Under the pieces are notes generated by a model, which had not been told where the DNA came from, did no database searches, and saw only the letters and a list, made by a program, of their open reading frames with translations. A stretch of DNA of 64,000 nucleotides from an uncultured virus (IMG/VR IMGVR_UViG_3300037313_000338) (lineage: Duplodnaviria > Heunggongvirae > Uroviricota > Caudoviricetes), in IMG/VR virus record IMGVR_UViG_3300037313_000338. One strand, 5' to 3'. Every line of letters starts with the position of its first letter. Position 1 is the stretch's first letter. Shown piece after piece: positions 4,107 through 62,748 of this stretch. The translations under genes and the position numbers were made by a program.

Positions 4107-4182
4107 GGGGTCTTAGCTCAGTTGGTAGAGCGGTAGCTTTGCAAGCTATAGGTCGCCGGTTCGATTCCGGCAGACTCCACCA
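4107..4182 (+). tRNA. tRNA-Ala(TGC)
   Basis: 76-nt cloverleaf: acceptor GGGGTCT/AGACTCC with G3.U70, anticodon loop TTTGCAA, GGTTCGATTCC T-arm, encoded CCA. Confidence 0.96.
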
Positions 4183-5278: not shown

Positions 5279-5353
5279 TGGAGTGTAGCTCAACGGTAGA
5301 GCATCCGGCTGTTAATCGGAGGGTTGTTGGTTCGAGTCCAACCACTCCAGCCA
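5279..5353 (+). tRNA. tRNA-Asn(GTT)
   Basis: 75-nt cloverleaf: TGGAGTG/CACTCCA acceptor, TCCGG-CTGTTAA-TCGGA anticodon arm, G discriminator, CCA. Confidence 0.96.
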
Positions 5354-7693: not shown

Positions 7694-9065
7694 TGGGGCT
7701 CCACACGACTAGCAGCTTTTGTAAGAGAGCCGTGAGCGCACGTTCTGCGGGGTTATCCCGAGGCGTGATGGAGCTAGTCAATCGTGTGACGCGGACAACA
7801 ATTACCTGTATCGGGCATAGCCGCTGTTGCCATTAGGCTTGAGGATAAGGCCTCAAGTGTCTAGCGGACACGTCACACAACGGTGGGGAGACGACTACGC
7901 AGTTACTCGACATTCCTGCGCCCCGGTCGTCTCCCCACTGTCTCTCAACCATTCTTTATTTAATAAACTATCTCTTCATAGGAACCCTGGACGCGACCGA
8001 ACACGGTGCTAATCCCACCGCTGGCCTAGCTTTAGTCGGTTACTATCCACGGTTTCTACCAAGAGACAGTCGTCTAGGAGCAATGCCGTCTTTGCGCAGA
8101 GCGGAACGCACGTTGCTGACACTGATACTCTTTGAACCACTTGGGGCCGGGCGCGGCCCCGCCATTCCCGAGAGCTAAGGTCCGTTTTATTAAACACGGT
8201 TGCTGTGGGACCGAGACGTGAGCAAGGTAAGCGGAGGCCTCCGTTTGATCCATGCACGTCCTTTTAGTAACGCCGGTGGGCTCCGGTATACAAATGCCCA
8301 ATTCTCTCAAGGGAAGTTTGGCACGACTACACTGCGGCTTGGCTAGTTCGCAGGAAGAATGGTTAGAAGCCCTTTCCAGTCGGACCGTTGGATCAACGGC
8401 TTAGCGAGACTTCCGCTTGAGAGATTAGTAAGAGTTTTATTGAGCCAAAGTAAACCTGCGCTGCGGAATGGTGGCGCGGGGCTGATTAACAAAGAGCGGA
8501 CAATTAATCCTCGCGATCTGCAATCGTCTGGATTGTCATGGCGGCGACCTAAAATCGCGGCATCCTAGGCATGACATTAACAAAACCGCTGCCCTCATGC
8601 AGGAGGGAGACACGGGGATATGCTGCGGCCCTCGTCTGTGCTTTGGTTCAATCAAACTTTTACTAATATTGAACAGCAGTAGAAGGCATTCGGCCCATCC
8701 GCCAAAGGTAGGGGTTTGTTTTCTTGAAACTGCTCCAAAGTAAATGCTGAAAGTGCCTACGGTACCCAATGGGCGCAGTTAGTGGTTGCTTGGCAGAACT
8801 CATGATTCTGTTTTGAGAGTAGGCTGCTGTTGTTCAATATTAGTAGAGTTCCAGAACGGCGAGTCCATTCGAACGAGCGGCATTTGCGAGATCGAATGTA
8901 CGTGGTAACTATAATGATCGGTGCGGCCCTTACGGCCCCGGCGACGTTGTAGGTCGAATGGGCTTTCCCTTCTGGAAACAGAAAACCAATCTGAGAGCTT
9001 CGTCCAAGCTAGGTAATCGGGCAACCGATTGATAGGGGTATCGAATCCCCTAGTTCTCAGAGAAT

Positions 9066-9128
9066 GGACGTAGAGTGTACGATTAATAACCGTTGCGGAC
9101 CGGGGTGCGATTCCCCGCGGCTCCACCA
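9066..9128 (+). ncRNA. ssrA: two-piece (permuted) tmRNA, acceptor piece
   Basis: T-arm CGGGG-TGCGATT-CCCCG followed by CGGCTCC-ACCA; GACGTAGAGTGTACG pairs with CGTATATGCGTC of the coding piece (P2). Confidence 0.9.
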
Positions 9129-9346
9129 TTAAGCCTTCCGACGGCCATTTAAGTATGGCGCTGACACGACGCGAAGCGTGTTAGTATCTGAAACGTACGG
9201 TAGGCTTAATCGAATAGATAGTAGCTCGTTGACGCTGACTGAAACACCTTTTGGTGGTAGGAACCGGCAGAGAGCCAAAGAAACCGGGTACTAATTCCTT
9301 AGAGGATTAGAACTTTGGGGCCTTGCATTATCTATTCGAACCAAGT

Positions 9347-9538
9347 GGGGCCGATCAGCATCGACGTGCGGCTAAAAGCGTATATGCGTCTCGGCATGAT
9401 TCCGCCGTTATCGGGTCAAAACTCCAAATGCCAACGAGAACATCGCTGGTCAGGAAATGGCTCGCGCGGCCTAACGGCTTCGCTAGTTAAATCCTACTTG
9501 TGGCCCGGAGGGAGCCATATCACCCAATCCCTCCACCT
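9347..9538 (+). ncRNA. ssrA: two-piece (permuted) tmRNA, coding piece; tag (A)ANENIAGQEMARAA
   Basis: 5' GGGGCCG pairs with CGGCTCC including G3.U70; GATCAGCATCGAC D-loop-like motif; tag frame 9430-9474 (GCC AAC GAG AAC...GCG GCC TAA) resembles alphaproteobacterial ANDN...AA tags. Confidence 0.9.
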
Positions 9539-9832
9539 TTACTAATAGCTAGATATGAGTCGGACACATCGATCTGGACTTCACACGTTGCAATGGTTTT
9601 CTCTCCCCCGGAGTAACGTGTGTGAACAACTCCCTGTCCGGGTTTGTTTGGGTCGGTGTGTCTCACTCATGTCTAATTATTAAACGTTGGTACCTGAGAA
9701 TACATGCTTCTCGATGGGATCAACCCATTGAGTTCCACATGTTGGCAATCTTGCCACTCCCTAACTTGTGGAGGGCGTGTATTCTGTCTCGTGTCATCGG
9801 GAGACAAGAGAACAAATAGTAGGAATAGTAAG

Positions 9833-10689: not shown

Positions 10690-12066
10690 GTGGCGGTCAA
10701 ACTATCTACTCTACCGGCTCCGACGTATCGGCGCGGTGCGCGCGGTGTTCGTAAAATCGCAGTCCCCGTTCGTGCGGAACTGAAGGCCAAAAATCTCTTC
10801 GAGGAAGAGGAAGAGAAGCAGTTATTAGAAGAAGTGCACGAACTGTTCGACGGAACGTATTCGGTTATTAGGCCGGGTCCGTGGAAGCGAGCGTTCCGAC
10901 CTTCGGGTTTCCCGTATTGCCCGGTACTCGACGCGATGACCGGTCCGGAGAACATGGACTATGGTAAAGCGTTCTACCTCGATATCGGGACCACTGTTCA
11001 CGCGCTTATGCAGGAATATATCGCGCGGTCGGCGCGAGGCCGCACAAACGTCTTTGCTAACTGGAAATGCAAGGATTGCGGCGGCGAACATATCTTCACG
11101 CCTATTCCTTACGTGTGCGCTTTCTGTGGCGCTGATAGTGAGAAGCTGGGTTACGAAGAACTAGCGTTCGAGAACGCGTTTGGCATTCAAGGCGGCCACA
11201 TCGACTTGTTAGTAAAGACTAGCAAGGGTTGGATTGTGGGAGACTGGAAGACCGCTTCTGAAATGGGCATGGACTACCGCAAAGAGGCTGACGGGAAACA
11301 CCACCACCAGCTACAAGCGTACTGTCTAGCGATCCAAGAGTTATTCAAGGATCACCTTCAGGGATTGCCGGTAATCGGCTACATGCTGATTTTCGTTCCG
11401 CGCGATGCGTCAGGACGGCGAGATTCCAAAGGTGACATTAGTAGCTCTAACTGGACACCCTACATTTACAAGTGGTCTCCGGAAATGGCGGTGGAAACGA
11501 AACGTCGCCTGTTCACGCAACGCGCTAGTTACGAAGCTGCTTCGATTGGCTACGAAACTAATAACTGGCTACCGGCGGCGTGGTTACGGCCATGCCAAAC
11601 GTTGGCAGATTTCAGCAAGCCTATGGGCATGCGGGATGGTTTCTACCAAGGCAAGCTATGCGAAAATCTCGATACCTGTTGCCGTAGTTCGCAGGAAGTA
11701 GCCGATGGAATTATTAAATTCCGATCAACCGTGAACGAGGATACGGCGCGCAAGACTGCTTTTATTAACGAACAAAAAGCGGAGTACCTTGCGTGTGCAG
11801 CGCAAGGATTCGTTGCTCCATCGCTGCTAGCCGAATTGAAAAAGGCGCGTAAGGCGGATGACTATGACAACGAATACGTCGAATCGATCTTAGCGGTTAA
11901 GGCGTCATTGGAAGCCTTGCTAGCGATTCGCACGGCGCTTAGTAGGCAAAAGACTCTGGAGTTTTTCGGAGTTCCAACCGAAGAGGCCAAGGCGGTAGCG
12001 GCGAAGTCTGAACCTACGTGGGAACGGGAAAAGCCAACAAAACCAAAACGTAAGAAGGCGGCCTAA
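10690..12066 (+). CDS. Cas4-like PD-(D/E)XK exonuclease
   Basis: RPS...YCP, GT.VH, GHID...DWKT, QLQAY and C-terminal Cys residues; inserted CxxC..CxxC. Confidence 0.8.
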   Translation: MAVKLSTLPAPTYRRGARGVRKIAVPVRAELKAKNLFEEEEEKQLLEEVHELFDGTYSVIRPGPWKRAFRPSGFPYCPVLDAMTGPENMDYGKAFYLDIGTTVHALMQEYIARSARGRTNVFANWKCKDCGGEHIFTPIPYVCAFCGADSEKLGYEELAFENAFGIQGGHIDLLVKTSKGWIVGDWKTASEMGMDYRKEADGKHHHQLQAYCLAIQELFKDHLQGLPVIGYMLIFVPRDASGRRDSKGDISSSNWTPYIYKWSPEMAVETKRRLFTQRASYEAASIGYETNNWLPAAWLRPCQTLADFSKPMGMRDGFYQGKLCENLDTCCRSSQEVADGIIKFRSTVNEDTARKTAFINEQKAEYLACAAQGFVAPSLLAELKKARKADDYDNEYVESILAVKASLEALLAIRTALSRQKTLEFFGVPTEEAKAVAAKSEPTWEREKPTKPKRKKAA

Positions 12067-18879: not shown

Positions 18880-20565
18880 ATGTACGCTCGCTATAAGAAC
18901 CAACTTCTGAATCAAACCTACTTCACCCCGGCTATCCTGCTGACGGATAGTTATAAACTCTCGCACCGGGATATGTATGCGGAGGGGATGGAGGTTCTGT
19001 TCTCGACGTGGACGCCGCGTAGCGACAAGATCGCGCTGATGGCGGAACGCCAACTGCCGCTGCAAAAGAGTGAAGTGGTGTTTTTCGGTCTGAGCATGGC
19101 TATTACTAAACTCTGTCGCGAGTTCAATGCATGGTTTGCTCGGGACACCGATGAAGCTACTAACGAATACACCGTGTTCGTGAAGCGCTTCCTGAAGCAA
19201 GACGTGACCGGCGATCACATTCGCGAACTGCACGAGTATGGTTCGCTCCCGCTGATCATCTACGCACTGCCGGAAGGTACGGTTACGAAGCCGGGCGTTT
19301 GCCAAATGGTCATTTTTAACAAAGAAGGTGAAAAGTTCGCTTGGCTTACTAACTACGTCGAAAGCCTCCTGTCCGATCTGTTGTGGAAGATGCCGACTTC
19401 GGCGACTATCGCGCGCAATTATTACACGCTAGCTTATCACTTCGCCGAACTGACGTGCGATCCAGTGAACGGTGAGTACCCGCATTTGAATTGGCAGATG
19501 CATGACTTCTCGTTCCGTGGCATGTCCTGTCCTGAGGACGCGGAATCGTCGGCGCTGGGTCACCTGTTGTTCTTCGGTGGCACGGATACTATTCCGGCGC
19601 TGTTTGCCGCCGAAGCCGTTTACAGCGACTTTGACATGGGTGACTACGGTAGCGTTCCCGCCAGCGAACACAGCGTTGGTTGTTCCACGCAGGCCGCTAT
19701 CTTGCAGGGGTTAACTGCTGACGGAGTTTATAAGGACAAGACGGCGCAGCAATGGCTCGACTCGTTTGACGATTTCAAAGAGGGCGTGCCATTAAATATC
19801 AAACAGATTGCCGAGCTTATTAGTATCTCGGAAGTGCTCGACAAATACCCCGATGGGATTCTGTCGTGGGTTTCGGACACGTGGGATTTCTGGTTCGTCC
19901 TGACGCAATTGCTACCGCGTCTGAAGACGAAGATCATGGCGCGTAATGGTAAGTTGGTTATTCGTCCCGATTCCGGTGATCCGGTGAAGATTATTAACGG
20001 TGATCCTGAAGCGCCGTTTGACACTCCGGCTTATTGGGGCGCTATCCGACTGCTGGGACGTACCTTCGGTACAACGGTTAACCGTAAGGGTTTCCGTGAA
20101 CTGGATTCGCACATCGGCCTGATCTACGGCGACAGCATTACGCTGACGCGCGCCGAAGCTATCTTCCGTGGGCTGGCCCGCAATGAGTACGCTTCTAGTA
20201 ACGTCGTGTTGGGTATCGGTAGCTACACCTATCAAGCGACTACGCGTGACGTGTTTGGCTACGCGATGAAGGCCACGGCTATGACCTTCGACGGCGTGGA
20301 AATCCCGCTGTTCAAGGACCCTGTTACTGACGACGGTACGAAGAAATCGTTCAAGGGTTTCCTGACCACGCGTCTGATCGATGGCGAGTACAAGACCATC
20401 GACGGGTTGAGTTTCGAAGAGGCACGTGATCTTAATAACAGTGCGTTCGTGCAATATCCGTTGGATGTGCAAGCGCTGACGCTGGCTGGCCTCAATCACT
20501 GGCCGACGATCCAAGCACGACTACGAGCGGGTGTGGTCGGCTATCAACTGAAGCAAGCAGCCTAA
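18880..20565 (+). CDS. nicotinamide phosphoribosyltransferase-like protein (NadV/Namat-like)
   Basis: LLTDSYK.SH, HDFSFRG, GTDT, PASEHS, VSDTWD, IRPDSGDP, IYGDSIT, GIGS, KDP.TD.G.KKS.KG. Confidence 0.92.
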   Translation: MYARYKNQLLNQTYFTPAILLTDSYKLSHRDMYAEGMEVLFSTWTPRSDKIALMAERQLPLQKSEVVFFGLSMAITKLCREFNAWFARDTDEATNEYTVFVKRFLKQDVTGDHIRELHEYGSLPLIIYALPEGTVTKPGVCQMVIFNKEGEKFAWLTNYVESLLSDLLWKMPTSATIARNYYTLAYHFAELTCDPVNGEYPHLNWQMHDFSFRGMSCPEDAESSALGHLLFFGGTDTIPALFAAEAVYSDFDMGDYGSVPASEHSVGCSTQAAILQGLTADGVYKDKTAQQWLDSFDDFKEGVPLNIKQIAELISISEVLDKYPDGILSWVSDTWDFWFVLTQLLPRLKTKIMARNGKLVIRPDSGDPVKIINGDPEAPFDTPAYWGAIRLLGRTFGTTVNRKGFRELDSHIGLIYGDSITLTRAEAIFRGLARNEYASSNVVLGIGSYTYQATTRDVFGYAMKATAMTFDGVEIPLFKDPVTDDGTKKSFKGFLTTRLIDGEYKTIDGLSFEEARDLNNSAFVQYPLDVQALTLAGLNHWPTIQARLRAGVVGYQLKQAA

Positions 20566-29183: not shown

Positions 29184-30035
29184 ATGCTTCGCAAACGCGA
29201 GTTCGCTAATCTGCTTCATTGGATACGTCAACGCGAACTCGCGCGTAGCAACAAGACGGCTGGACTCAACGCTCCGTACTGCGATGACGAGGTTATTAAT
29301 ACGTATCGCTTCTGCAACGTCATCCGAATGGATGACCGGGTAAGCCAATGGCTACTCGATCATTGGTACGCGCCAAACATGGGCAATACTAACCAATGGT
29401 TTGCGTGCGCCGTGGCACGTTACCTCAACTGGCCCGATACGTTGATGCGAATTGGCTACCCGGTGACTTGGAATCCCCCACGTGCGCTTCGCAAGCTGAA
29501 CGCAATTGACGGTAAGACGTTCTCTGCGGCGTACATCATTCCTGCACCGGGCGGCACACGGAAGATCGAGCACGTTATTAATAACGTGCTGACGCCATTG
29601 TACGAGAGGCGAGAGTTGTTCAACTCCGCTATTCCCAACTGGACAAGCATGGAGAAGGCTCACGCGCGTCTGCAAAGCGCAGTAGGCTTCGGTAGCTTCC
29701 TAGCGGGACAGGTTGTAGCGGATTGGCGACATGCGGGCGTTTTCCGTGGCGTCCCGCAAGATGTATTGACCTGGGCTCCGTTAGGACCGGGTAGTACACG
29801 TGGAATTAATAGACTGCTGGGGCGCGAAGCGACCGCCGGAATTCCGAAAACCGAAGCGCATAGCGCTATGTTCGAAGCGTTCGTTAAGACCATTGCCGAA
29901 CTGGATCACCCGGTTGTAGAGCGAATGGAGTTAATGGATTTCCAGAACTGCCTTTGCGAATTCGACAAATATATGAGAACCCTAAACGCCGAAGGCACAC
30001 CGAAGGTACGATATGTCCCAAATCGAGGCTACTAA
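29184..30035 (+). CDS. aGPT-Pplase family (amino acid:DNA transferase-like, HhH glycosylase fold) thymidine hypermodification enzyme
   Basis: RE.....K.AG..APYCDDEVI.TYRFCNV.R.DDR, FSAAYI, GFGSFLAGQVVADW, GPGS.RGINRL, DFQNCLCEFDKY.R. Confidence 0.8.
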   Translation: MLRKREFANLLHWIRQRELARSNKTAGLNAPYCDDEVINTYRFCNVIRMDDRVSQWLLDHWYAPNMGNTNQWFACAVARYLNWPDTLMRIGYPVTWNPPRALRKLNAIDGKTFSAAYIIPAPGGTRKIEHVINNVLTPLYERRELFNSAIPNWTSMEKAHARLQSAVGFGSFLAGQVVADWRHAGVFRGVPQDVLTWAPLGPGSTRGINRLLGREATAGIPKTEAHSAMFEAFVKTIAELDHPVVERMELMDFQNCLCEFDKYMRTLNAEGTPKVRYVPNRGY

Positions 30036-52780: not shown

Positions 52781-54319
52781 ATGGCTAAGAAATCGTCTCC
52801 CCCACCTAAAACCAAGACCAAGGTCAAAGCAGCCGACGTTTCGGCTGACAAGCCTTCTAAGAAGAGCACTGGTAAGAGCTTAGTCATTGTGCCTAGCGCA
52901 CGAGACATGGCTGCGTACGGGTCTAGTGACCCTGCTACTGAAGCTTTTAATAGTCTATTGTCTGCGCAATTCGATACGCTAGAGAAAAAGTACGAAATGA
53001 CCGGTGCAGCGACTCGTTCGCTGGACAAGATTTCTTCGGATTCCCTGGTGTGCGATCTAGTAACCGGCGGAGGTTTCACTCCTACGGGTATTAACCAGCT
53101 AGCTGGTGGTGAAGGTAGTGCTAAGACCACTACGACTTTCCACACGCTAGGACGTGCCCTAAGCGACCGCTCGGCATCGATGATTCACTTCAACGATCCT
53201 GAGAATACGTTCGATCAGGACTACGTTTCTAATATCTTCGGACCTAAGTTCGACGCGATGTTGCTAGAACGTCTGCGGTACGCTGACCAGAACATTCTGG
53301 AAAGCTACTTCGACTTCATCCGTGGCATTATCCGCACCTTGCCCGACAAGGTTTGGAACGATGACATTGGTTCGTTTGTCTATCGCATTAATAACAAGGT
53401 TCCTGAGCAAGTTGCGCTTCGGGAAGTGGCACAATCGCGTGGGATCAAACCTGATCCTAAGCTGTCCAACAAGGAATTTACTATCATTCCTTCGTTGACT
53501 TCTACGCCGCAAGCTCTGTTCATCCTCGACTCCATTCCCGCACTAATTACCGACAAGTCTGATGATCGCGAAAGCGACGAAGGCGGCGGTATGAGCGAGA
53601 AGGCGCGGGTGATGGCAGAAGTTCTGCCTAAGACGGCGGGACGTTTCCGCCGTAAGGGTGTTGTCGCCTTGTTTATTAACCAGCTTCGCGAGAAGCCGGG
53701 CGTCATGTACGGTTCGCCGATCTACGAACCCGGTGGTAACACACTGAAGTTCTACTCAGCGCAACGCACGTGGACTACTACTCGTGTTCCGCCGAACGAT
53801 ACCTTCAAAAAGGATAAGGAAGCGACGCAATTAAACGTCGAAGACAATCCGCTTGGTGGTAAGGATTACTATTCGTTCAAGGAATACAAGAACGTTAAAA
53901 ACAAGGCAGGTACTCCGTTCCTGCGCGGATGGTTCCGAGTTTGGACCGCCGACCCGGACGGCAACGGTCATGGCATCGATCCAGTGTTTGACCTTTGGGA
54001 ATATCTGTCGATGACCGGTCAAGTCGAAGGCAAGCGAGTTAGCGCAAAAGGCTTCCGGCTGTTACTACCCGGCGCGTCTAAGAACCTGGGTTCTGATGCT
54101 CCGCTGAATTGGCATACATTCAAGTTATTAGTGTTGGCCGAGAAGTATGGTGGTAAGTACCTGAAGGCTGCCAAGGAAGCTGGTTATTCCAAGCCTCCTA
54201 GGTTGCTGGAACTGGCATGGCAACAACGCGGCCCCAAAGCCTCGCAACTTCGTGCTGAACGTACGAAAGCCATTGCTGACGGCAGGGCCGAGAAAGACGA
54301 AATGAAAGAAGCCGCCTGA
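52781..54319 (+). CDS. recA: RecA/UvsX-family recombinase
   Basis: GGEGSAKTT Walker A, DPE, ILDSIPAL Walker B, FINQLREKPGVMYGSP.YEPGGNTLKFYS, VKNK. Confidence 0.9.
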   Translation: MAKKSSPPPKTKTKVKAADVSADKPSKKSTGKSLVIVPSARDMAAYGSSDPATEAFNSLLSAQFDTLEKKYEMTGAATRSLDKISSDSLVCDLVTGGGFTPTGINQLAGGEGSAKTTTTFHTLGRALSDRSASMIHFNDPENTFDQDYVSNIFGPKFDAMLLERLRYADQNILESYFDFIRGIIRTLPDKVWNDDIGSFVYRINNKVPEQVALREVAQSRGIKPDPKLSNKEFTIIPSLTSTPQALFILDSIPALITDKSDDRESDEGGGMSEKARVMAEVLPKTAGRFRRKGVVALFINQLREKPGVMYGSPIYEPGGNTLKFYSAQRTWTTTRVPPNDTFKKDKEATQLNVEDNPLGGKDYYSFKEYKNVKNKAGTPFLRGWFRVWTADPDGNGHGIDPVFDLWEYLSMTGQVEGKRVSAKGFRLLLPGASKNLGSDAPLNWHTFKLLVLAEKYGGKYLKAAKEAGYSKPPRLLELAWQQRGPKASQLRAERTKAIADGRAEKDEMKEAA

Positions 54320-54438: not shown

Positions 54439-54903
<465 letters not shown>

Positions 54904-54911
54904 TTATTAGA

Positions 54912-55109
54912 ATGGATGATCAAGAATTTCTCATTCAGTTCTTCCATTACGAACATCTACCAATTGAGAAACAAGGGGTGTCAAAGCCCTTTGGTGAGTT
55001 AGCAAAACTCATTGTACAAACACTGCCACGTAACCCGGAACGTACGACGGCTCTTCGAAAGCTGTTGGAAGCTAAGGACTGTGCGGTGAGAGCTTCATTC
55101 GCCAAGTAG
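54912..55109 (+). CDS. small conserved phage protein, possible Acb2/Tad1-like helical hairpin
   Basis: FF.Y.HLP...Q.VSKPF..LA......LP..PERT.ALRKLLEAKDCAVRA. Confidence 0.55.
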   Translation: MDDQEFLIQFFHYEHLPIEKQGVSKPFGELAKLIVQTLPRNPERTTALRKLLEAKDCAVRASFAK

Positions 55110-55172
55110 AAGTTAGGCCCTAGTATTTCGGTACTAGGGCCTTTCTTATGAAGTGCTACAGGATACGTTAGT

Positions 55173-57521
55173 ATGCCTATTTCGCTAAAAAAGCCATGGG
55201 GCGATTACATCTGCCCGACCGACAATTTTTATATGCTGCGCCCGGCAGGTATGGGCGGTAGCCCTAAGCGATACAAGCATAGGCTACTGGTCGTGTACGA
55301 CCGCCCGTTCCACAACGATACGGAAGTGGGTGAACTTCACAGTTATAAAGCGGGCACAACCATGCTCGCGAATACACCCGAATGGCGCAAGCCTACTATG
55401 CCTTCCGAGACCATTGACCGGTTACTTCATGTGGCTGGTTACGAGAAGTGGGATAAGGTTGCTGTCGGGTGGCAATTCCACGACCTAGAAGACTTGACGG
55501 ATGATTTAGTAGAACGCGCCTTCCAAGCATTTGACAAACGTCTGACGTACTACATCAAAAAGTTGGAACCTACCGCGATCCTATTCATGGGAGACGCGCC
55601 GTTAGTAAACTACGCCAAACGCAAGGGTAAACGCGTGCCTGTTGGGCGCGTGTTTAAGTACAAGGGCGTTGACGCGATCTGGACGGTTCCAGCGGCTCCG
55701 CTTTGCGTACCTGATCCTGGTACGTCTTCGTTATTAGGCCAAGCGATGGATCATGCTGACGCAGTGCGCGTTGGCAAGAACCGCTACACGGCCCGTAAGC
55801 TGGAGCAACCTACCGAAATAGTATACTGCGATACGCTGGATAAGGTTGAAGAGGCTGTTGAAGCCTGTCTTGCGTCACCGCAATTCGCGTACGATACGGA
55901 AGGCGCAAACCTCAATCGTATCATCAACACGTTATTATCTGTCCAGTTGGCTCCCACTACCGACAAGGCGTACTTCATTCCTTGCGCGCACGTAGACAGC
56001 CCATTCGGCGGCAAGACACTAGACCAAGTTTACGCCAAGCTGCGACGACTGTTTCATACGTACACGGGTACGGTTATTACCGCGCACGGCAAGTACGATT
56101 TGATTATGGCACGCGTGCAACTGAAGGTACCGCATATGCGGTTCAAGTTGTACGACGTTGCGGCGGCTGAATACGCCATCGACGAGAACCGGAAATACTA
56201 CAGCGCAATTATTAGCGCACAGAAGGTTTATCTAAGCGTCGATGGTGAACGCAAGGCTGAGAAAGACCGCGACAAGCACAACAAGAACAAGTTGTCTGCG
56301 TGGGGTCTACAGCGCATCGAAGAGGACTACGGGATAAGCCGAGGCGAAGACATTCTCGGTAAGGACCAACGTACTAACATGTCGGCAGTGCCGTTGGAAC
56401 AAATCGTCCCATACGGTATCCTTGACGTTGTGAACCTGTTATTAATCAAGGAACAGCAAGAACGTCTAGCTAAACGACGAGGGTTCCCCAACTTCCAAGG
56501 CTATGTTGAACACCTGGGGTTAATGACTCACGTGTTCGCGAGCATGGAGGTGCGCGGGTTGCCTACAGACGTGCCTGCGCTGATTGCGCTACGCAAAGCA
56601 GACGGGCCGGTGCGTAAGGCCATTCGCGAAGCCAAAGCGATATTAATGGAAAGCGATGCTGCGAAGCACGCAAACGCCATGTTATTGCGGCAGATCGGAG
56701 CACCAGCGAAAAGCCTATGGGGCAATCAGACAGCCTGGGTGTTCAATCCAGACAAAGACGAGAGCCAACAAACATTATTCTTCGGCGTGCTACACCTGAA
56801 AGGGTTTGGTATCACGGCGACGGGTAAGAAATCAGTAGGCAAGCAGTTCCTCAAAAATAATGCTGCACACCCTATCGTCGCGGCGTATGCCGATTACGTA
56901 GAAGCTAAGAAGTTCAAGACCGGATTCGTCGACAGCTTTGCCGCTATTATTTCGACCAATCCTGACGCTCGCGCCACACAACGCATTAGGTCCAGTTACG
57001 GCTTCCTGACTGTGTTGACCGGGCGAACGTCGTCTACGGACCCGAACCTTCAGAACCTTCCGGCTCACGGTAAGCTAGCCAAGCTTATTAAGAAGATTAC
57101 GAAGGCCGTGTTCGGTTACGGGTTAATCAAACAAGACTTCGGCCAGAACGAAATCCGCGGCTACGCTATTATCTCCAAAGATAGTGCGTACGCGGCCAAA
57201 TTCTGGAATAGTATCTTGATGCATAAAGCCTACCGCGTTGCAACTGATCCGGCGAAGATCGATGAGCTTCACAAGGAATGGGACACGAAGGGTGACACGC
57301 ACGTTCAGGCGGTGTGGGACTTCTTCAAGCAACGAGTTAATAAGAAACACGCGTTGAGGCAGGCGGTTAAGGCCGTCATCTTCGGCGTGCTGTACGGTAA
57401 ATCGGCTAGGTCGCTAGCTTTGGAACTAGCGTTAGTGGAAATCAAACAGCTTCGCGAGGAACTTAAAGCTCTGCGCGCGGCTAATGATAACCAAGACAAC
57501 GAACGAAAGCGGGCAGCTTGA
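55173..57521 (+). CDS. polA: family A DNA polymerase, N-terminal part (UDG-like domain, 3'-5' exonuclease, motifs A and B)
   Basis: IKKLEPTAILFMGDA (UDG-like), ExoI YDTEG, ExoII HGKYDL, ExoIII YGILDV, TGRTSSTDPNLQNLP, motif A QDFGQNEIR, motif B RQAVKAVIFGVLYG; no motif C. Confidence 0.9.
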   Translation: MPISLKKPWGDYICPTDNFYMLRPAGMGGSPKRYKHRLLVVYDRPFHNDTEVGELHSYKAGTTMLANTPEWRKPTMPSETIDRLLHVAGYEKWDKVAVGWQFHDLEDLTDDLVERAFQAFDKRLTYYIKKLEPTAILFMGDAPLVNYAKRKGKRVPVGRVFKYKGVDAIWTVPAAPLCVPDPGTSSLLGQAMDHADAVRVGKNRYTARKLEQPTEIVYCDTLDKVEEAVEACLASPQFAYDTEGANLNRIINTLLSVQLAPTTDKAYFIPCAHVDSPFGGKTLDQVYAKLRRLFHTYTGTVITAHGKYDLIMARVQLKVPHMRFKLYDVAAAEYAIDENRKYYSAIISAQKVYLSVDGERKAEKDRDKHNKNKLSAWGLQRIEEDYGISRGEDILGKDQRTNMSAVPLEQIVPYGILDVVNLLLIKEQQERLAKRRGFPNFQGYVEHLGLMTHVFASMEVRGLPTDVPALIALRKADGPVRKAIREAKAILMESDAAKHANAMLLRQIGAPAKSLWGNQTAWVFNPDKDESQQTLFFGVLHLKGFGITATGKKSVGKQFLKNNAAHPIVAAYADYVEAKKFKTGFVDSFAAIISTNPDARATQRIRSSYGFLTVLTGRTSSTDPNLQNLPAHGKLAKLIKKITKAVFGYGLIKQDFGQNEIRGYAIISKDSAYAAKFWNSILMHKAYRVATDPAKIDELHKEWDTKGDTHVQAVWDFFKQRVNKKHALRQAVKAVIFGVLYGKSARSLALELALVEIKQLREELKALRAANDNQDNERKRAA

Positions 57522-57632
57522 GTCCATAAATCCAGCTGCATAATGTTTCGGGTCATGTCAAGTGCGCCCTCAGTCCGCGTGTTGGCGGACTGAGGGCGAT
57601 GTGCTATATTAATCTCACTCGGGGAATGTCAG

Positions 57633-57824
57633 ATGGTTGAAATCATTAAACGCGGTACGCTCAAATACGAAAAGGTCTATGAGGCGACCTGTAGACAATG
57701 CACGACGGAATTCACTTTCAAGCGGCATGAAGCCGCAGAACTCTACGACCCACGTGAGGGAACTGCGTTAGGTATTAATTGTCCGCTTGCTGGTTGCAAT
57801 AACGAAGTATGGGTGAACGCGTAA
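57633..57824 (+). CDS. small zinc-ribbon protein inserted between polymerase halves
   Basis: CRQC...CPLAGC; GGGGA RBS. Confidence 0.7.
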   Translation: MVEIIKRGTLKYEKVYEATCRQCTTEFTFKRHEAAELYDPREGTALGINCPLAGCNNEVWVNA

Positions 57825-58012
57825 TGGCTCGGTTGCTGCCTGTAGTTGATGGACGTGTGACGTACAGAGGGCGACCGCAGCTAGGTTCTGGTAAAGTTAT
57901 TAGTATCAACGACAAATGGGTGAACGTCTTGTGGGACGTTAGATTGTCTGACACGCACCGGTACGCTCGCATCAACCACATCGACGAACTAGAAGGTCTA
58001 GCCGATGACTGA
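57824..58012 (+). CDS. small beta-rich protein between polymerase halves
   Basis: TAATG coupling; GRV.Y...P.LG.GKV pattern (SH3-like). Confidence 0.55.
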   Translation: MARLLPVVDGRVTYRGRPQLGSGKVISINDKWVNVLWDVRLSDTHRYARINHIDELEGLADD

Positions 58013-58511
58013 CGATAGTAACAAGTCTGAACAGCCTTTGATCTTCAGCAGTGACATTGGGTTTACGACAACGAAAACTGCCGCTAGCGAAATTCGCGAG
58101 GCTTTGACTGACGTACTAACTCGTTGTGTGAAAGACGGCGTAGCTCCAGCACATATCGCTTATGATATCGAGCAAGCGTTTCTCATGCATTTCGGCGTGA
58201 ATCTTACTAAAGTTGTCGAAGCCCAACGTGGCTTTGAACAACCTCCGGTGATGGGCGCGTCTGATATACTGGAAGCTGCTATAGCTGGAATACGGTTGCG
58301 GCTCGGTAAGAGACTTGGTTCTCATAGTGATTCAATCGTCGGTCCCGGCGTTGCGCCTAACTGTGGCTTCTCCGTTACGTCGCTTGACGATCCAGATGAC
58401 TGGACGCGTTACGAACTGACGGTGAAAGAAAACAAACCCACCGAAAAATATAAAGAGTCCATCCGCCGTAGCGTGAACGCCATTATGGAGAAAGCTTCCA
58501 GCAATGAGTAG
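58005..58511 (+). CDS. hypothetical protein between polymerase halves
   Basis: 168-aa ORF overlapping both neighbours by 8 nt. Confidence 0.65.
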   Translation: MTDDSNKSEQPLIFSSDIGFTTTKTAASEIREALTDVLTRCVKDGVAPAHIAYDIEQAFLMHFGVNLTKVVEAQRGFEQPPVMGASDILEAAIAGIRLRLGKRLGSHSDSIVGPGVAPNCGFSVTSLDDPDDWTRYELTVKENKPTEKYKESIRRSVNAIMEKASSNE

Positions 58512-59388
58512 ACGCGAGCGGGAGATTACTAATCGTATCGACCTACTTGAGCGCGACCCACAAGGCGCTAAGCTACAAGAGGCCGAAGATACTATTAACA
58601 AGTTCTTTGAGAAATACCCCGATGGCGCACGATGGATCGAGGCGACGCACAAAAGCGGCAGAGAAGAGTTCTTTGCACCCAATCTTTTTGGAGGCCGCCG
58701 CCACCTGTATGGTTATATTAGCGCTAACACTGGCGTCCACTCGGCGATGGATCGAAGAGGGCCAAACTCTCTCATCCAAGGTCCGCTCTCTCAAGTCGGA
58801 TACGTCGCAGTCTACAGCCTCGAACAGTGGCTCGACGATCTCTCCAACGAAACCAACCTACCATTAATAGAACACATGGGTGTGTTCAACATGGTGCACG
58901 ACTCACAGGAAATGGAAGCCCCTATCCTGTTGATGCCGTTAGCAAGTTACATGTTGGAGCACGCCTGTACGACACGGGTGGTGGAATACTTTAATAAATA
59001 TCAAGTCGCTCAGAACTATAAGTTGTCGGTCCACGAAAAGTCCGGCAAACAAGTTGGCATTCCGCTGAACGTGGAATTCGAAGTCGACCAAGAAATCGGC
59101 CTGAACCTGGGCGAAACTAATAAGTACGACGGCCACCGCCGTTCAATGCTCTCCAGCATGTTGCCGATGGCTCGTTCCAAGCGAGAACGTAGGCAGTTAA
59201 CCGCTAACATCGAATTAGTGATGGGCTTGCGGGAGAAAGAAATTCGCCGTGACCTGAAGTCATACAAAAATAGCAACGACAACAAAGAAGCGTTGATACC
59301 GTCTACTCGTTGTTTACTAACGGCAAAGCACGTCTTAGAAATGTACTTGCCTGAGGAAGTGAAACCGAAAAAGCGGCATCAGGTGTAA
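58504..59388 (+). CDS. polA: family A DNA polymerase, C-terminal part (fingers remainder and motif C)
   Basis: EAEDTINKFFEKYP, FGGRRHL, RRGPNSLIQG, motif C MVHDS. Confidence 0.88.
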   Translation: MSRREREITNRIDLLERDPQGAKLQEAEDTINKFFEKYPDGARWIEATHKSGREEFFAPNLFGGRRHLYGYISANTGVHSAMDRRGPNSLIQGPLSQVGYVAVYSLEQWLDDLSNETNLPLIEHMGVFNMVHDSQEMEAPILLMPLASYMLEHACTTRVVEYFNKYQVAQNYKLSVHEKSGKQVGIPLNVEFEVDQEIGLNLGETNKYDGHRRSMLSSMLPMARSKRERRQLTANIELVMGLREKEIRRDLKSYKNSNDNKEALIPSTRCLLTAKHVLEMYLPEEVKPKKRHQV

Positions 59389-60198
59389 ACGCACCTGGAT
59401 AAAATAGATGGGGCAAAATATGATTCGCAATCCGTTGTCAGAATTCGAGTACCCGTTAATGCATTTCGGTAATCTCGTAGTGGCGCGCAGTGGTTTGCAC
59501 GTATGTCAAGCTTTCAACGAATCAATAGCGAAACAAATCTGTTCTGATCTTAATAAAGAACAAGAACTTCGCGTAGCAAGTGTAAGAGTCGGAAAAGGCA
59601 ATCCTGCCGCCGCGTACAGTTTTTTATGAGGTTAGTAAGATGGTTCACATGCTAGGCAGTAAACTACTTAGCGGCAAGGCTCCGCACCAGCCTAAGTTAA
59701 CGGTAGTGATGAATATCTCACGCGCCACGGAAGACGGCGCTGCTATTACGATCAAGACCGGTACTATCTCAGTCAGCGATGACCGTTATCGCGCATGGTA
59801 TCAGCCGTTGTTCAAGAGCGGTGAAGAGCACCATGTGGCTATGAGTTCACCGCCGCTCTCACTGGACAAAGCTAGGGCGTTGGCGCTCAAGCAAGCAGAG
59901 TTATTAGCGTTTCAAGTGGACCTTGGTCTTCGGCAGTTGCTTGACGAAGCTGAAGCAGAAGCCAAAGAACGCGCCAAGATCGACTCGGCTATTAAGTCTA
60001 AAGGATAATTAATAACATGCTCACTTGGACTATAATTGTAATGGAGAATTCTCGGGGATTTCGTATGGCGACGTACACGAATGAGACTGAGGCTCGCGAG
60101 AAAGCTTCAGCAGCCGCAAAGGGAATGGATAGCCCTATGTTTGGTCATCGTACCGTCTACATTATTGATCCTTTTGGGATGCATTCTCAGGTGTTTCC

Positions 60199-60816
60199 AT
60201 GACCGTCCCATCAAAGACGTCTATTAAACTGCACGGCGGCATTTTCTTCGATTTCGAGCAACCCGAACGCAGTCCCTTTACAATCGAAACTGTTGCTCAT
60301 CATCTGTCGAAAGTAGACCGCTACGCTGGTATGCTGGACGTGATCTTTTCGGTAGGGCAACACTGCCTGTTAGTAGACGTAATTGTCGCCCATCTTGTAA
60401 GTGCATTACACGAAACGGACCCATTGGAGTATTGGCAGCTTCGGTTTGAAGCATTGATGCATGATAACTCCGAGTTCGTTATGGGCGATATGGTGCATCC
60501 TCTTAAGATCATCATGCCAGAGTATCGCGCCAAAGAAGCGCAAATCGAAGACCTTTGCAGCAGGCGGTTTGGTTTCCGTCGCCCACATAATCCAGTTATT
60601 ATGCAAGCTGACAAGATCGCGCGTTACGTCGAGACTTATAACTTCGATCCGCATTTTGATGGCGTGAACACCACAGTCCACCAAGGCGAAGTTATTCCTG
60701 ACCTGTTCAGGGAGTATCACCTTTCGCCGATGAATTTCCCCGAAGTGAAGGATGAATTCTTGGCCCGATACAACCTCATCACCGGCAAGATCACTTCCTC
60801 TATGCTGGAAGCATGA
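60199..60816 (+). CDS. HD-domain 5'-deoxynucleotidase (YfbR/YfdR-like)
   Basis: AHHLS..DRYAG, FSVGQHC, ALMHD.SE..MGD...PLK, AD. Confidence 0.85.
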   Translation: MTVPSKTSIKLHGGIFFDFEQPERSPFTIETVAHHLSKVDRYAGMLDVIFSVGQHCLLVDVIVAHLVSALHETDPLEYWQLRFEALMHDNSEFVMGDMVHPLKIIMPEYRAKEAQIEDLCSRRFGFRRPHNPVIMQADKIARYVETYNFDPHFDGVNTTVHQGEVIPDLFREYHLSPMNFPEVKDEFLARYNLITGKITSSMLEA

Positions 60817-60854
60817 TATAATATTAGATACGAGTGAGCCTTTGGAGAATATTA

Positions 60855-61964
60855 ATGGCGAAGAAATTGGCTGCGGAAGATACTAAGACTACCACCAGAG
60901 GCCACGATCTTACTAAGCTATTGGCTTTCATGGCGAAAGTTGTCCCTGACGGCGAAGGTATTGTGTTCGCGGACGACGGCAAGTCGCGCATGACCTTACA
61001 AGCCAACTCAGCGGATTCGCAATCTGTTACCGCGATACTGCCTACCGGAGGCAGAGTTATTAAGCCAGTGATGCTGCGTCGGCATGATTTCTTGAAAGCC
61101 TATCGTAAGGAAGCTTTTCTCAGCGGTACGGACGGCAAACTTCAAATGTCTGCGGGGCATTGGAAGCTCGCACTGGCGGGATCGGTAGAGGCCAACACGC
61201 CAGAACCCTTCGTCGTGGAAGGTAAGAAGTTAGTAGCGGATGTGGGTCCGCTCAAGTCGATCCAGACTGAAGACAGTTACGGAGGTTCGACGTGGGCGAT
61301 CTTCCTACCTAACGGACTCGCGGCGGTGGTTTCTACTTACTCCATGGTCTGCGTGATCATGGATTCCGAAGTTTGGCCGTCTAAGCCTGTCACGATGCAG
61401 GCCAACGCTATCTATCCGTTATTAAATCTTGTGGAACCTGTGCTGACTGTTGGCGCTGACGTGGTTGGCGTAACCGGCAAGTTCCCCTGCGGTAATAACG
61501 TTGATGCTCAAGTGCATATCGCGCTAGCCAAGCCGACAATCGATCCGCCATCTGCGGAACAGATTGAGCAAATGGTTCCTACTAAAAAGCATCGCCTGTC
61601 GGTTCCGTCACAAGAACTACGTATCTGTATCGAAGGCGCAAAGAAGACCTTCGAAGACGAAGCTACTAACCTAACGTTCTCACTAGTGGAAACCGGATTG
61701 TCTGTAAGCCTGCAATCGCACTCAGCAGCGCTGTCGGAAGTAATTCCATATGTGAAGCGTCCTGAAAAAGCTAGCGGCAAGCTGGTTATTAATACTGACG
61801 TAGCAGTAAACGCGTTCAAGAGCATCAAGGAACTGACTAGTAGTGACGCAATTGCGTGTATTCGTTGGGATGAAACGGCGGTGTACATTCGTATCGTTCA
61901 CGCTAAAGAGGTACTCGAAGGCAAGTTAATCGGCGCTATCGTAATCGCAGCTTCGGAAGAGTAG
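60855..61964 (+). CDS. possible DNA sliding clamp (DnaN-like)
   Basis: ~370 aa with an alternating beta/alpha pattern; C-terminal third resembles beta-clamp domain III; replication-gene context. Confidence 0.45.
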   Translation: MAKKLAAEDTKTTTRGHDLTKLLAFMAKVVPDGEGIVFADDGKSRMTLQANSADSQSVTAILPTGGRVIKPVMLRRHDFLKAYRKEAFLSGTDGKLQMSAGHWKLALAGSVEANTPEPFVVEGKKLVADVGPLKSIQTEDSYGGSTWAIFLPNGLAAVVSTYSMVCVIMDSEVWPSKPVTMQANAIYPLLNLVEPVLTVGADVVGVTGKFPCGNNVDAQVHIALAKPTIDPPSAEQIEQMVPTKKHRLSVPSQELRICIEGAKKTFEDEATNLTFSLVETGLSVSLQSHSAALSEVIPYVKRPEKASGKLVINTDVAVNAFKSIKELTSSDAIACIRWDETAVYIRIVHAKEVLEGKLIGAIVIAASEE

Positions 61965-62748
61965 TCATGGACAATCAGCGCAGCATCCGGGATTTTATTA
62001 ACGACTGGACAGACGCCGTTAATAGTTCGGGTAACGTAGTCCTCGATCTACCGGAGTCCATTAGGCAGACTGTACGTGATGCGGGTGGCGATCCCGACAC
62101 TCTTTACTTGGCGGGCGTAGAATACGACGTGGTGGAGGAGGATAGTAACGCATGAGTAACCTACTCGAACTGGTCAAACTAGCTAAGCCCGGCACGTTTG
62201 TTGACGCGAGGTTATCAGCGTCTCCCGAGAACGCTATTGTGTATCGAGCTAGGCAACCGCTTATCGAAGATATTATCGAAGTGCCGATGCTTCAGAATTT
62301 CGGCATCATTCCGGTGTCTGCGATCATGGCGGGACGTACGCAAGTCGGGGTTTGCGTGAGGTTTAGTGACAACATGACGGCGAAGGTCACTCAGGGTAAT
62401 TTTGCTACGTTCGTGTCAGATCGTTGTCGCGGAAATCTAGGTGTTGCTACGTGCGCAATGCGTACGCCGGACTACCTGATTTTCTCGTATGCTTCTCGCG
62501 GCGCATTGTTATTAAAGAAACTGACCAAGGGCCGTGGATATGGAGCCGTCTAATGCGTGAAGGAACTTGGCACACATTGAGGTGTTCCGCTTTTACCCAA
62601 GAAGATTTAGATAAGTTAATAATGGAAGTAAGCCAAACGGGCTGGGAACTGGTTACCGTTATGCACACTCCAGACACTAGAACTACAGCGCCTCTCGGTG
62701 GCGGGTGTTCGTGGCACGCGTATTTAAAGAAATTCGAAGGTTATTGAC

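Follow-up and report, generated by a model that had tools for sequence, protein, structure and literature searches.

In a 64,000-nucleotide stretch of DNA from an uncultured tailed soil virus (IMG/VR record IMGVR_UViG_3300037313_000338; hereafter the window), two open reading frames (ORFs) on the plus strand, polA-N (55173–57521) and polA-C (58504–59388), very probably encode a replicative family A DNA polymerase made of two non-covalently joined chains, as judged from their sequences and predicted structures; we infer that the assembled enzyme is active. We propose that the two chains are translated separately and assemble into one polymerase, the cut falling in a surface loop past the helix that follows motif B. 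The chains would interlock chiefly through the palm β-sheet and the fingers, while two arms would pair as a short helical zipper in place of the covalent loop. The genes lying between the halves would be passengers settled in a neutral intergenic slot, and the free C terminus of the N half would have become an ssrA-like tag through which host ClpXP, with SspB, probably turns over this half.

The N half (782 aa) comprises an N-terminal domain that resembles a degenerate uracil-DNA glycosylase, a candidate assignment, followed by the 3′-5′ exonuclease (PF01612 at residues 218–424), the thumb, the palm with motif A, and the fingers until just past motif B. The C half (294 aa) supplies the remaining fingers, the palm with motif C and the C-terminal part. 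The PF00476 profile is divided between them with zero loss of the domain, positions 30–231 on the N half and 232–339 on the C half, and both halves score over the cut-off; with motifs A, B and C all present over the two chains, this places the protein in family A. The original prediction held that the catalytic aspartates of motifs A and C sit on separate polypeptides, and motif mapping bears this out: the N half carries motif A (D655, E660) and motif B (R729, K733, F737, Y741), and the C half carries motif C (H132-D133). The acidic residues of both the exonuclease and the polymerase are invariant across 73 aligned homologues. The ORF boundaries, the position of the cut just past motif B and the presence of added helical ends are likewise as first described; these ends measure about 31 residues (N half) and about 24 residues (C half). 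The cut maps to chain residues 454–457 of the Klenow fragment (1d9d_A), in the loop past the short helix after motif B, a region whose helices we take to be O, O1 and O2. The N half modelled alone has a predicted local distance difference test score (pLDDT) of 87 overall, falling below 50 at residues 760–782, which few alignment rows cover. It matches phage PolAs, with a template-modelling (TM) score of 0.79 to the Motura model, and the model of an unsplit relative, P0018, matches Klenow structure 1d8y (E 2.4e-24), indicating a Klenow-like fold.

The split is inherited. A further five N halves, each 778–783 aa long, are 76–84% identical to that of the window over residues 440–782, with ends at most five residues apart, and eight other standalone C halves of 273–298 aa, 63–74% identical, share a common start site. 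Two further C halves with the same start, P0137 and P0138, carry inteins further in, one within the GPN/SLIQG motif and one directly past the motif C aspartate, so that split and intein occur in one gene. All 11 C halves of the clade begin with a methionine within two residues of one place, and relatives from four sources have the same ends. For four of the five N halves there is a C half whose longest contig equals theirs in size, which points to adjacent halves in these relatives too. An IQ-TREE tree of 50 rows that we picked was built from the sequence that follows the cut. In it the 11 C halves group together as a single clade (93/98), whose sister group consists of three unsplit proteins that lack an insertion at the site (100/100). 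That these closest unsplit relatives are free of a hairpin was, like the C-terminal tail discussed below, absent from the original prediction.

Both added ends are conserved. The N-half arm (57426–57476, plus strand; residues 752–768) has a heptad-spaced hydrophobic face and a mean pairwise identity of 82% in six N halves, against 82% for residues 440–751, with 11 of 17 columns invariant. The C-half helical head (58504–58575, plus strand; residues 1–24) has, over residues 2–24, a mean pairwise identity of 76% in nine C halves, against 75% for the whole C half, and 12 of 23 invariant columns. These alignments indicate that the arms are constrained as strongly as the enzyme, which argues against splicing, bypassing and decay, since each of these would let the arms drift. 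The hydrophobic moment is clear for the C heads (0.49–0.65 at 103 degrees) and lower, without a peak, for the N arms (0.30–0.39), and so lends weak support to an amphipathic N arm.

Given that phage polymerase genes often contain group I introns of about 800 nt (PMC11878797; here and below, literature statements refer to the portions of the cited papers available to us), and that the gap between the halves is of intron-like size (982 bp) with a stable hairpin near its 5′ end, we considered whether an unrecognised self-splicing intron or ribosomal bypassing could yield one continuous polymerase. No intron family from Rfam matched in the gap at E≤10, the single match being a chance one to mir-128, in agreement with the lack of an intron signature in the original prediction. 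The arms would be intronic or skipped under such a scheme, yet they are conserved as protein; the methionine start is kept across the clade; and the two halves lie in different reading frames. An independently split relative, locus L009, has a different gap of 2.1 kb with four genes. We regard rejoining at the level of RNA or translation as highly improbable.

Rejoining at the protein level, through an atypical split intein, draws some support from the inteins found in this polymerase family, the clade C halves included. No intein family matched the ORFs of the locus at E≤0.1, again as the original prediction had it, and the added parts are short, at about 31 and 24 residues, with no Cys/Ser start and no His-Asn end. 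Nor does the arrangement look like a misassembly: a 13.4-kb contig from an independent assembly (run X1) spans the gap and covers positions 54705–62000 with zero differences and zero gaps. Run X1 is possibly the window's own source, so this contig tests the assembly and not the biology; the shared ends of relatives from four sources bear on the same point. Trans-splicing or an assembly artefact is, on these grounds, scarcely credible.

The gene could instead be decaying or only partly functional, with a dead polymerase or an N half serving solely as an exonuclease, while the phage uses another polymerase. The cut does part the catalytic aspartates of motifs A and C, and the window is only part of a genome. 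Both halves are nevertheless open, 75–76% conserved in the clade, and keep every catalytic residue. Two clade C halves carry inteins at motif positions, and an intein at such a position usually marks a needed gene. The locus of the closest unsplit relative with a complete genome, the sister L002, lies in a genome of 205.9 kb with terminal repeats (G001), where sigma factor, single-stranded DNA-binding protein (SSB) and RecA genes lie upstream of polA in the same order as in the window. G001 gave no PolB or DnaE match, and beyond its PolA only a 78-aa fragment matches PF00476; PolA is the only detected polymerase of this phage. In the independently split G002 (the record of L009, 74% complete), no other polymerase was detected either, PolB and DnaE included. 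Decay is therefore very unlikely.

A prediction of the complex from N-half residues 440–782 and the C half scored 0.82, against 0.01 for the best of three controls. The mark for this score is reached by 116 of 157 solved complexes and by 2 of 215 mismatched pairs, a calibration that is only rough with our own alignments. Across runs, at least 96% of contacts agree, and the partner chains have pLDDT values of at least 82. The best-defined contacts join the motif A strand (649–654) to C-half residues 135–141 and 196–200, giving an interleaved palm sheet. In the model, interface residues of the N arm are 752–754, 756–757, 760–761, 763–764, 767–768 and 771, and those of the C head are 2, 4–5, 8–9, 11–12, 15–16 and 19–24; they show heptad spacing, and residues 772–782 of the N half are absent from the listed interface. 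Because the chain is continuous in unsplit enzymes and the insertion of unsplit P0018 folds as helix (736–764), turn and helix (768–790), with pLDDT 84–95, the arms would pair in antiparallel fashion. Reassembly through an antiparallel coiled coil, as originally envisaged, is thus partly upheld: the arms do lie in the predicted interface, but they are neither the sole nor the main contact, contributing 12 of 101 listed interface residues on the N half and 15 of 117 on the C half, with about 88% coming from palm and fingers.

Taken together, the conserved split and arms, the passing complex model and the unsplit relatives with a helix-turn-helix insertion favour the natural two-subunit PolA, formed without splicing, that the original prediction had put forward. 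Other considerations weigh against it. The passing score is expected from likeness to solved single-chain PolA, and so speaks for fit and not for binding in the cell. The window is part of a genome, so that a second polymerase may lie elsewhere in this phage. Finally, DNA of split clade-mates was not found in viral, metagenome or genome contigs; the loci retrieved in that search were all unsplit except L009, which was reached with P0133.

We asked how the cut loop is used across the wider family. A profile search returned 876 hits, and the best 150 of these, together with earlier hits and 13 locus ORFs, gave 186 classified sequences: 90 are plain, 30 carry an insertion of 15–73 aa at the cut site, 36 are standalone C halves (14 in the window clade), and 30 are unclassified. 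Unsplit homologues with a helical insertion at this site, which the original prediction had proposed to look for, thus exist. A FastTree tree was built on 149 rows, with the 30 unclassified sequences left out along with seven rows that were duplicates, too short or doubtful; on this tree the split label requires 18 changes, and starred branches force 16 of them. P0138, whose intein falls in the cut region, forms a long branch in this tree; it was used whole with IQ-TREE. In the 50-row tree the split label needs at least nine changes, and a single change suffices in 0 of 200 bootstrap trees. The trees indicate that splits at this loop arose repeatedly. In L009 (10001–15516) the polymerase has been split independently at this site; the 2.1-kb gap holds four different ORFs, none of which matched an endonuclease family, and the N half has neither the ANDN nor the AA end described below. 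L009 is the only split outside the window clade seen as DNA, and the 21 other C halves from outside the clade may include fragments at contig edges.

Where split and unsplit sisters could be compared, the head of the split C half finds its best match among the 30 insertions in that of its own sister (rank 1) for five of six sister pairs, with two looser pairs at ranks 8 and 11. The window arms, compared with the 30 known insertions, reach best local scores of only 26 and 29, against 40–94 for true sister pairs. Either order of events would fit the window clade, whose sisters are free of the hairpin and whose arms resemble none of the known insertions. One possibility, which we hold tentatively and at somewhat less than even odds, is that the arms arrived with the split on a mobile cassette, for example a homing endonuclease gene later replaced by passengers, the unsplit hairpin forms being re-fusions; the alternative is that the hairpin came first and was later cut at its tip. 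For the cassette speak the three hairpin-free closest unsplit relatives and the poor match of the window arms to all 30 insertions, along with a precedent in T4-like phages, where nrdA, gene 60 and gene 43 have been split by free-standing endonucleases (PMC2988022). Against it, no endonuclease family was seen in the gap of the window or of L009, and the trees cannot separate gain from loss. The split heads elsewhere that match the descending helix of a sister insertion also count against it, although that match fits either direction.

The gap itself (57522–58503) holds three overlapping genes on the plus strand. ORF1 (57633–57824) encodes a small four-cysteine protein of 63 aa in PHROG 2834 (E 2.8e-8); its homologues occur in ten phage records, and the copy in BcepSaruman lies about 100 kb from polA. 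ORF2 (57809–58012) encodes a small barrel of 67 aa without a Pfam or PHROG match that resembles unnamed viral clusters (feature score 0.91; TM 0.71). ORF3 (58005–58511) is a 168-aa orphan that retrieved only itself in a word-indexed search and gave no usable match in an atlas search. The overlaps between ORF1 and ORF2, ORF2 and ORF3, and ORF3 and polA-C are 16, 8 and 8 nt, the stop of ORF3 overlapping the start of polA-C. As the original prediction stated, no homing endonuclease is apparent: no endonuclease family matched in the window gap in Pfam or PHROG, ORF3 being an orphan. The three genes are most simply read as passengers, and the lack of relatives of ORF3 hints that gap content differs among clade-mates.

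The original prediction had also singled out a strong hairpin and a promoter-like site here, and had suggested that the halves are separately regulated. The hairpin exists, as a 14-bp perfect inverted repeat (57565–57598) in a 119-nt spacer with a folding z of −2.7, but no T run follows it, it ranks 22nd of 61 in the window, and it is probably an ordinary intergenic hairpin. The sigma-70-like site, with TG before its −10 box (57582–57610, plus strand), occurs at chance frequency, one being found against 0.9 expected, and its TATTAAT part belongs to a word enriched throughout the window (26 seen, 3 expected). TGCTATATT shows no enrichment, with six matches at one mismatch against 11 expected. 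The hairpin and the three overlapping ORFs thus stand, but the suggestion of separate regulation loses its footing.

The N half ends in a sequence that resembles an ssrA tag (57477–57518, plus strand): AANDN, seven residues and AA, making it a candidate SspB/ClpXP degron. It is identical to the Caulobacter ssrA tag (PMC9393093) at 8 of 14 positions and of equal length. In Escherichia coli the head of the tag binds SspB and its ALAA end binds ClpX (PMC8512704); SspB is present in Caulobacter, and the basic end of MuA is also a ClpX degron (PMC8138137). The tail shares with ssrA tags the AAND-type adaptor head, the terminal AA and, with the Caulobacter tag, the length of 14 residues, and with the MuA degron the basic residues before the end. 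It differs from an ssrA tag in being gene-encoded and not added by trans-translation, and in having a charged and not a hydrophobic spacer. The window also encodes a permuted tmRNA of the alphaproteobacterial type with its own tag (9025–9565, plus strand; RF01849, 126.7 bits against a cut-off of 50), which points to an alphaproteobacterial host. Direct capture of the tail from this tmRNA is not supported, no DNA likeness being evident by eye beyond that imposed by the shared residues.

Several counts suggest that the resemblance is not accidental. Across the six frames of the window there are two occurrences of AN[DE]N, one in the tmRNA tag and one in the N-half tail. Within the last 25 residues it is found in 6 of the 282 proteins collected, all six being N halves; of 548 control ORFs from the retrieved loci, none has it there. 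The NDN and the last alanine are invariant in the six tails, while the spacer varies in sequence and in length (7–11 residues). Of the 186 family sequences, 38 have a terminal AA, as compared with 1 of 100 PolAs of the cellular type and 4 of the 110 genes in the window. Two of the three unsplit sisters finish in AA and the third in VA, and 0 of 11 clade C halves end in AA. The terminal signal therefore seems to be old in the family, and after the split it would have been kept on the N half with an adaptor-like head added. We also noted that three other window proteins, a PD-(D/E)XK nuclease (10690–12066), a nicotinate/nicotinamide phosphoribosyltransferase (18880–20565) and RecA (52781–54319), end in AA without ANDN; these ends are possible plain ClpX signals.

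The tail may, however, have nothing to do with SspB: the ANDN could cap a helix and the final AA could be a plain ClpX signal or chance. N771 does contact the C half in the model, terminal AA without ANDN is common in the polymerase family, and the tail lacks both the Phe of the tag after AANDN and a hydrophobic residue before the final AA. The six tails are also not uniform at their very ends, since five finish in AA and one in VA, as RAA, KAA or KVA. The restriction of AN[DE]N to the tmRNA tag and the N halves, and an invariant head and end around a varying spacer, are harder to reconcile with such an absence of mimicry, which we consider a real but lesser possibility. On balance we lean slightly towards the tail being a working degron. 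A further variant, which we think rather doubtful, is that assembly gates its use: the adaptor-binding head of the tag abuts the pairing helix, and SspB would hand an unpaired N half to ClpXP while pairing with the C half shields it, so that the host protease, together with a C half expressed from beyond the passenger genes, would set the level of active replicase. Should the tail function as a mimic, the lifetime of the phage replicase would be coupled to the host tmRNA quality-control pathway. A gene-encoded ssrA mimic on a phage polymerase was not found in the literature searched, although subscription papers and supplements could hold one.

The neighbours of polA are genes for a sigma factor, SSB, RecA, an acidic protein and an HD hydrolase; elsewhere the window encodes a type II topoisomerase, thymidylate synthase, RtcB and a 5-hydroxymethyldeoxyuridine (5-hmdU) kinase-like protein. 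The last of these (29184–30035) matches PF18723, the helical domain of 5-hmdU DNA kinase (E 5.8e-38), which hints that thymidine may be hypermodified. Downstream of polA-C, a 376-aa gene (60834–61964) has no Pfam or PHROG match; in PaBG and Lu11, genes of similar size close to polA carry a sliding-clamp annotation, the likeness being one of size and position only. Between 3300 and 10600 there is no ORF of at least 150 aa, and the region holds many hairpins, the tmRNA and tRNAs, including tRNA-Ala (4107–4182) and tRNA-Asn (5279–5353); it may hold further non-coding RNAs below Rfam cut-offs. The word TTANTAA occurs 163 times in the window (25.5 per 10 kb), 137 of them in coding DNA, against 0–1.3 per 10 kb in four related loci. 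ATTAATA is likewise enriched (40 seen, 3.5 expected), and CGATCG, GGCGCC, CCGCGG and CGGCCG are depleted.

The same protein family includes the single-chain PolAs of jumbo myoviruses of the PaBG, Lu11, BcepSaruman, Yoloswag and Motura type; the cultured relatives have genomes of 190–280 kb and PolAs 24–34% identical to that of the window. In two cultured phages, BcepSaruman (L001, 7662–10832) and the Rhizobium phage RHph_N46 (L010, 1553–4726), PolA is a single chain that carries a helical insertion where the window enzyme is split. Among the 60 cultured records listed of 94, 59 match as one piece across the site and one stops earlier; none of the listed records carries this split. The loop is a site of repeated hairpin insertion and apparent fission in the jumbo-phage polymerase family, a case of single-chain enzymes becoming two-chain enzymes, and a likely permissive site for engineered split PolAs.

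A family A polymerase split inside its polymerase domain was not found in the literature searched, where subscription papers and supplements could hold one, and none is described in the available text of PMC7824862, PMC6892783, PMC11878797 or PMC5422525. The cut is also of a type absent from the available part of a PolA survey that names an exonuclease/polymerase split as the first in PolAs (PMC10201439), a split to which PMC12695635 also refers. That case, in S-SBP1-like T7-like cyanophages, resembles ours as a family A polymerase from two genes by fission and predicted to reassemble. Their cut, however, separates the exonuclease from the polymerase domain; a single chain keeps the whole active site, the two genes overlap and the ends are loose. 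In the window the exonuclease and PF00476 30–231 share one chain, and the cut runs through the polymerase domain itself, with motif A on one chain and motif C on the other; the new ends are conserved helices predicted to pair. The points that appear new are the family A fold, the active site shared by two chains, the recurrent origin of splits at a single loop and the ssrA-like tail of the N half.

Other parallels come from T4-like phages. In Aeh1, nrdA is split by mobE, and an essential enzyme has its active site rebuilt from two chains without splicing, although the enzyme is a ribonucleotide reductase and the gap holds a homing endonuclease (PMC2988022). The fingertip-split family B polymerase gp43A/gp43B occurs in phages 133, 44RR, 31, 25 and 65, the two genes lying 2 bp to 3 kb apart (PMC3061061), and the phage 25 halves co-purify and are active (PMC2988022). 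As in the window, the cut lies in the fingers, there are two chains from two cistrons, and no splicing element marks the cut. The gp43 halves differ in their family B fold and fingers architecture, the window enzyme matching PF00476 and not PolB, and their gap is an endonuclease gene or a short untranslated spacer where the window has three passengers; the available parts of PMC3061061 and PMC2988022 mention no ssrA-like tail for gp43. By analogy, the window PolA would work as gp43A/gp43B do while standing outside that group, and would add family A to family B as a source of polymerases naturally split in the fingers, here with both chains contributing to the active site.

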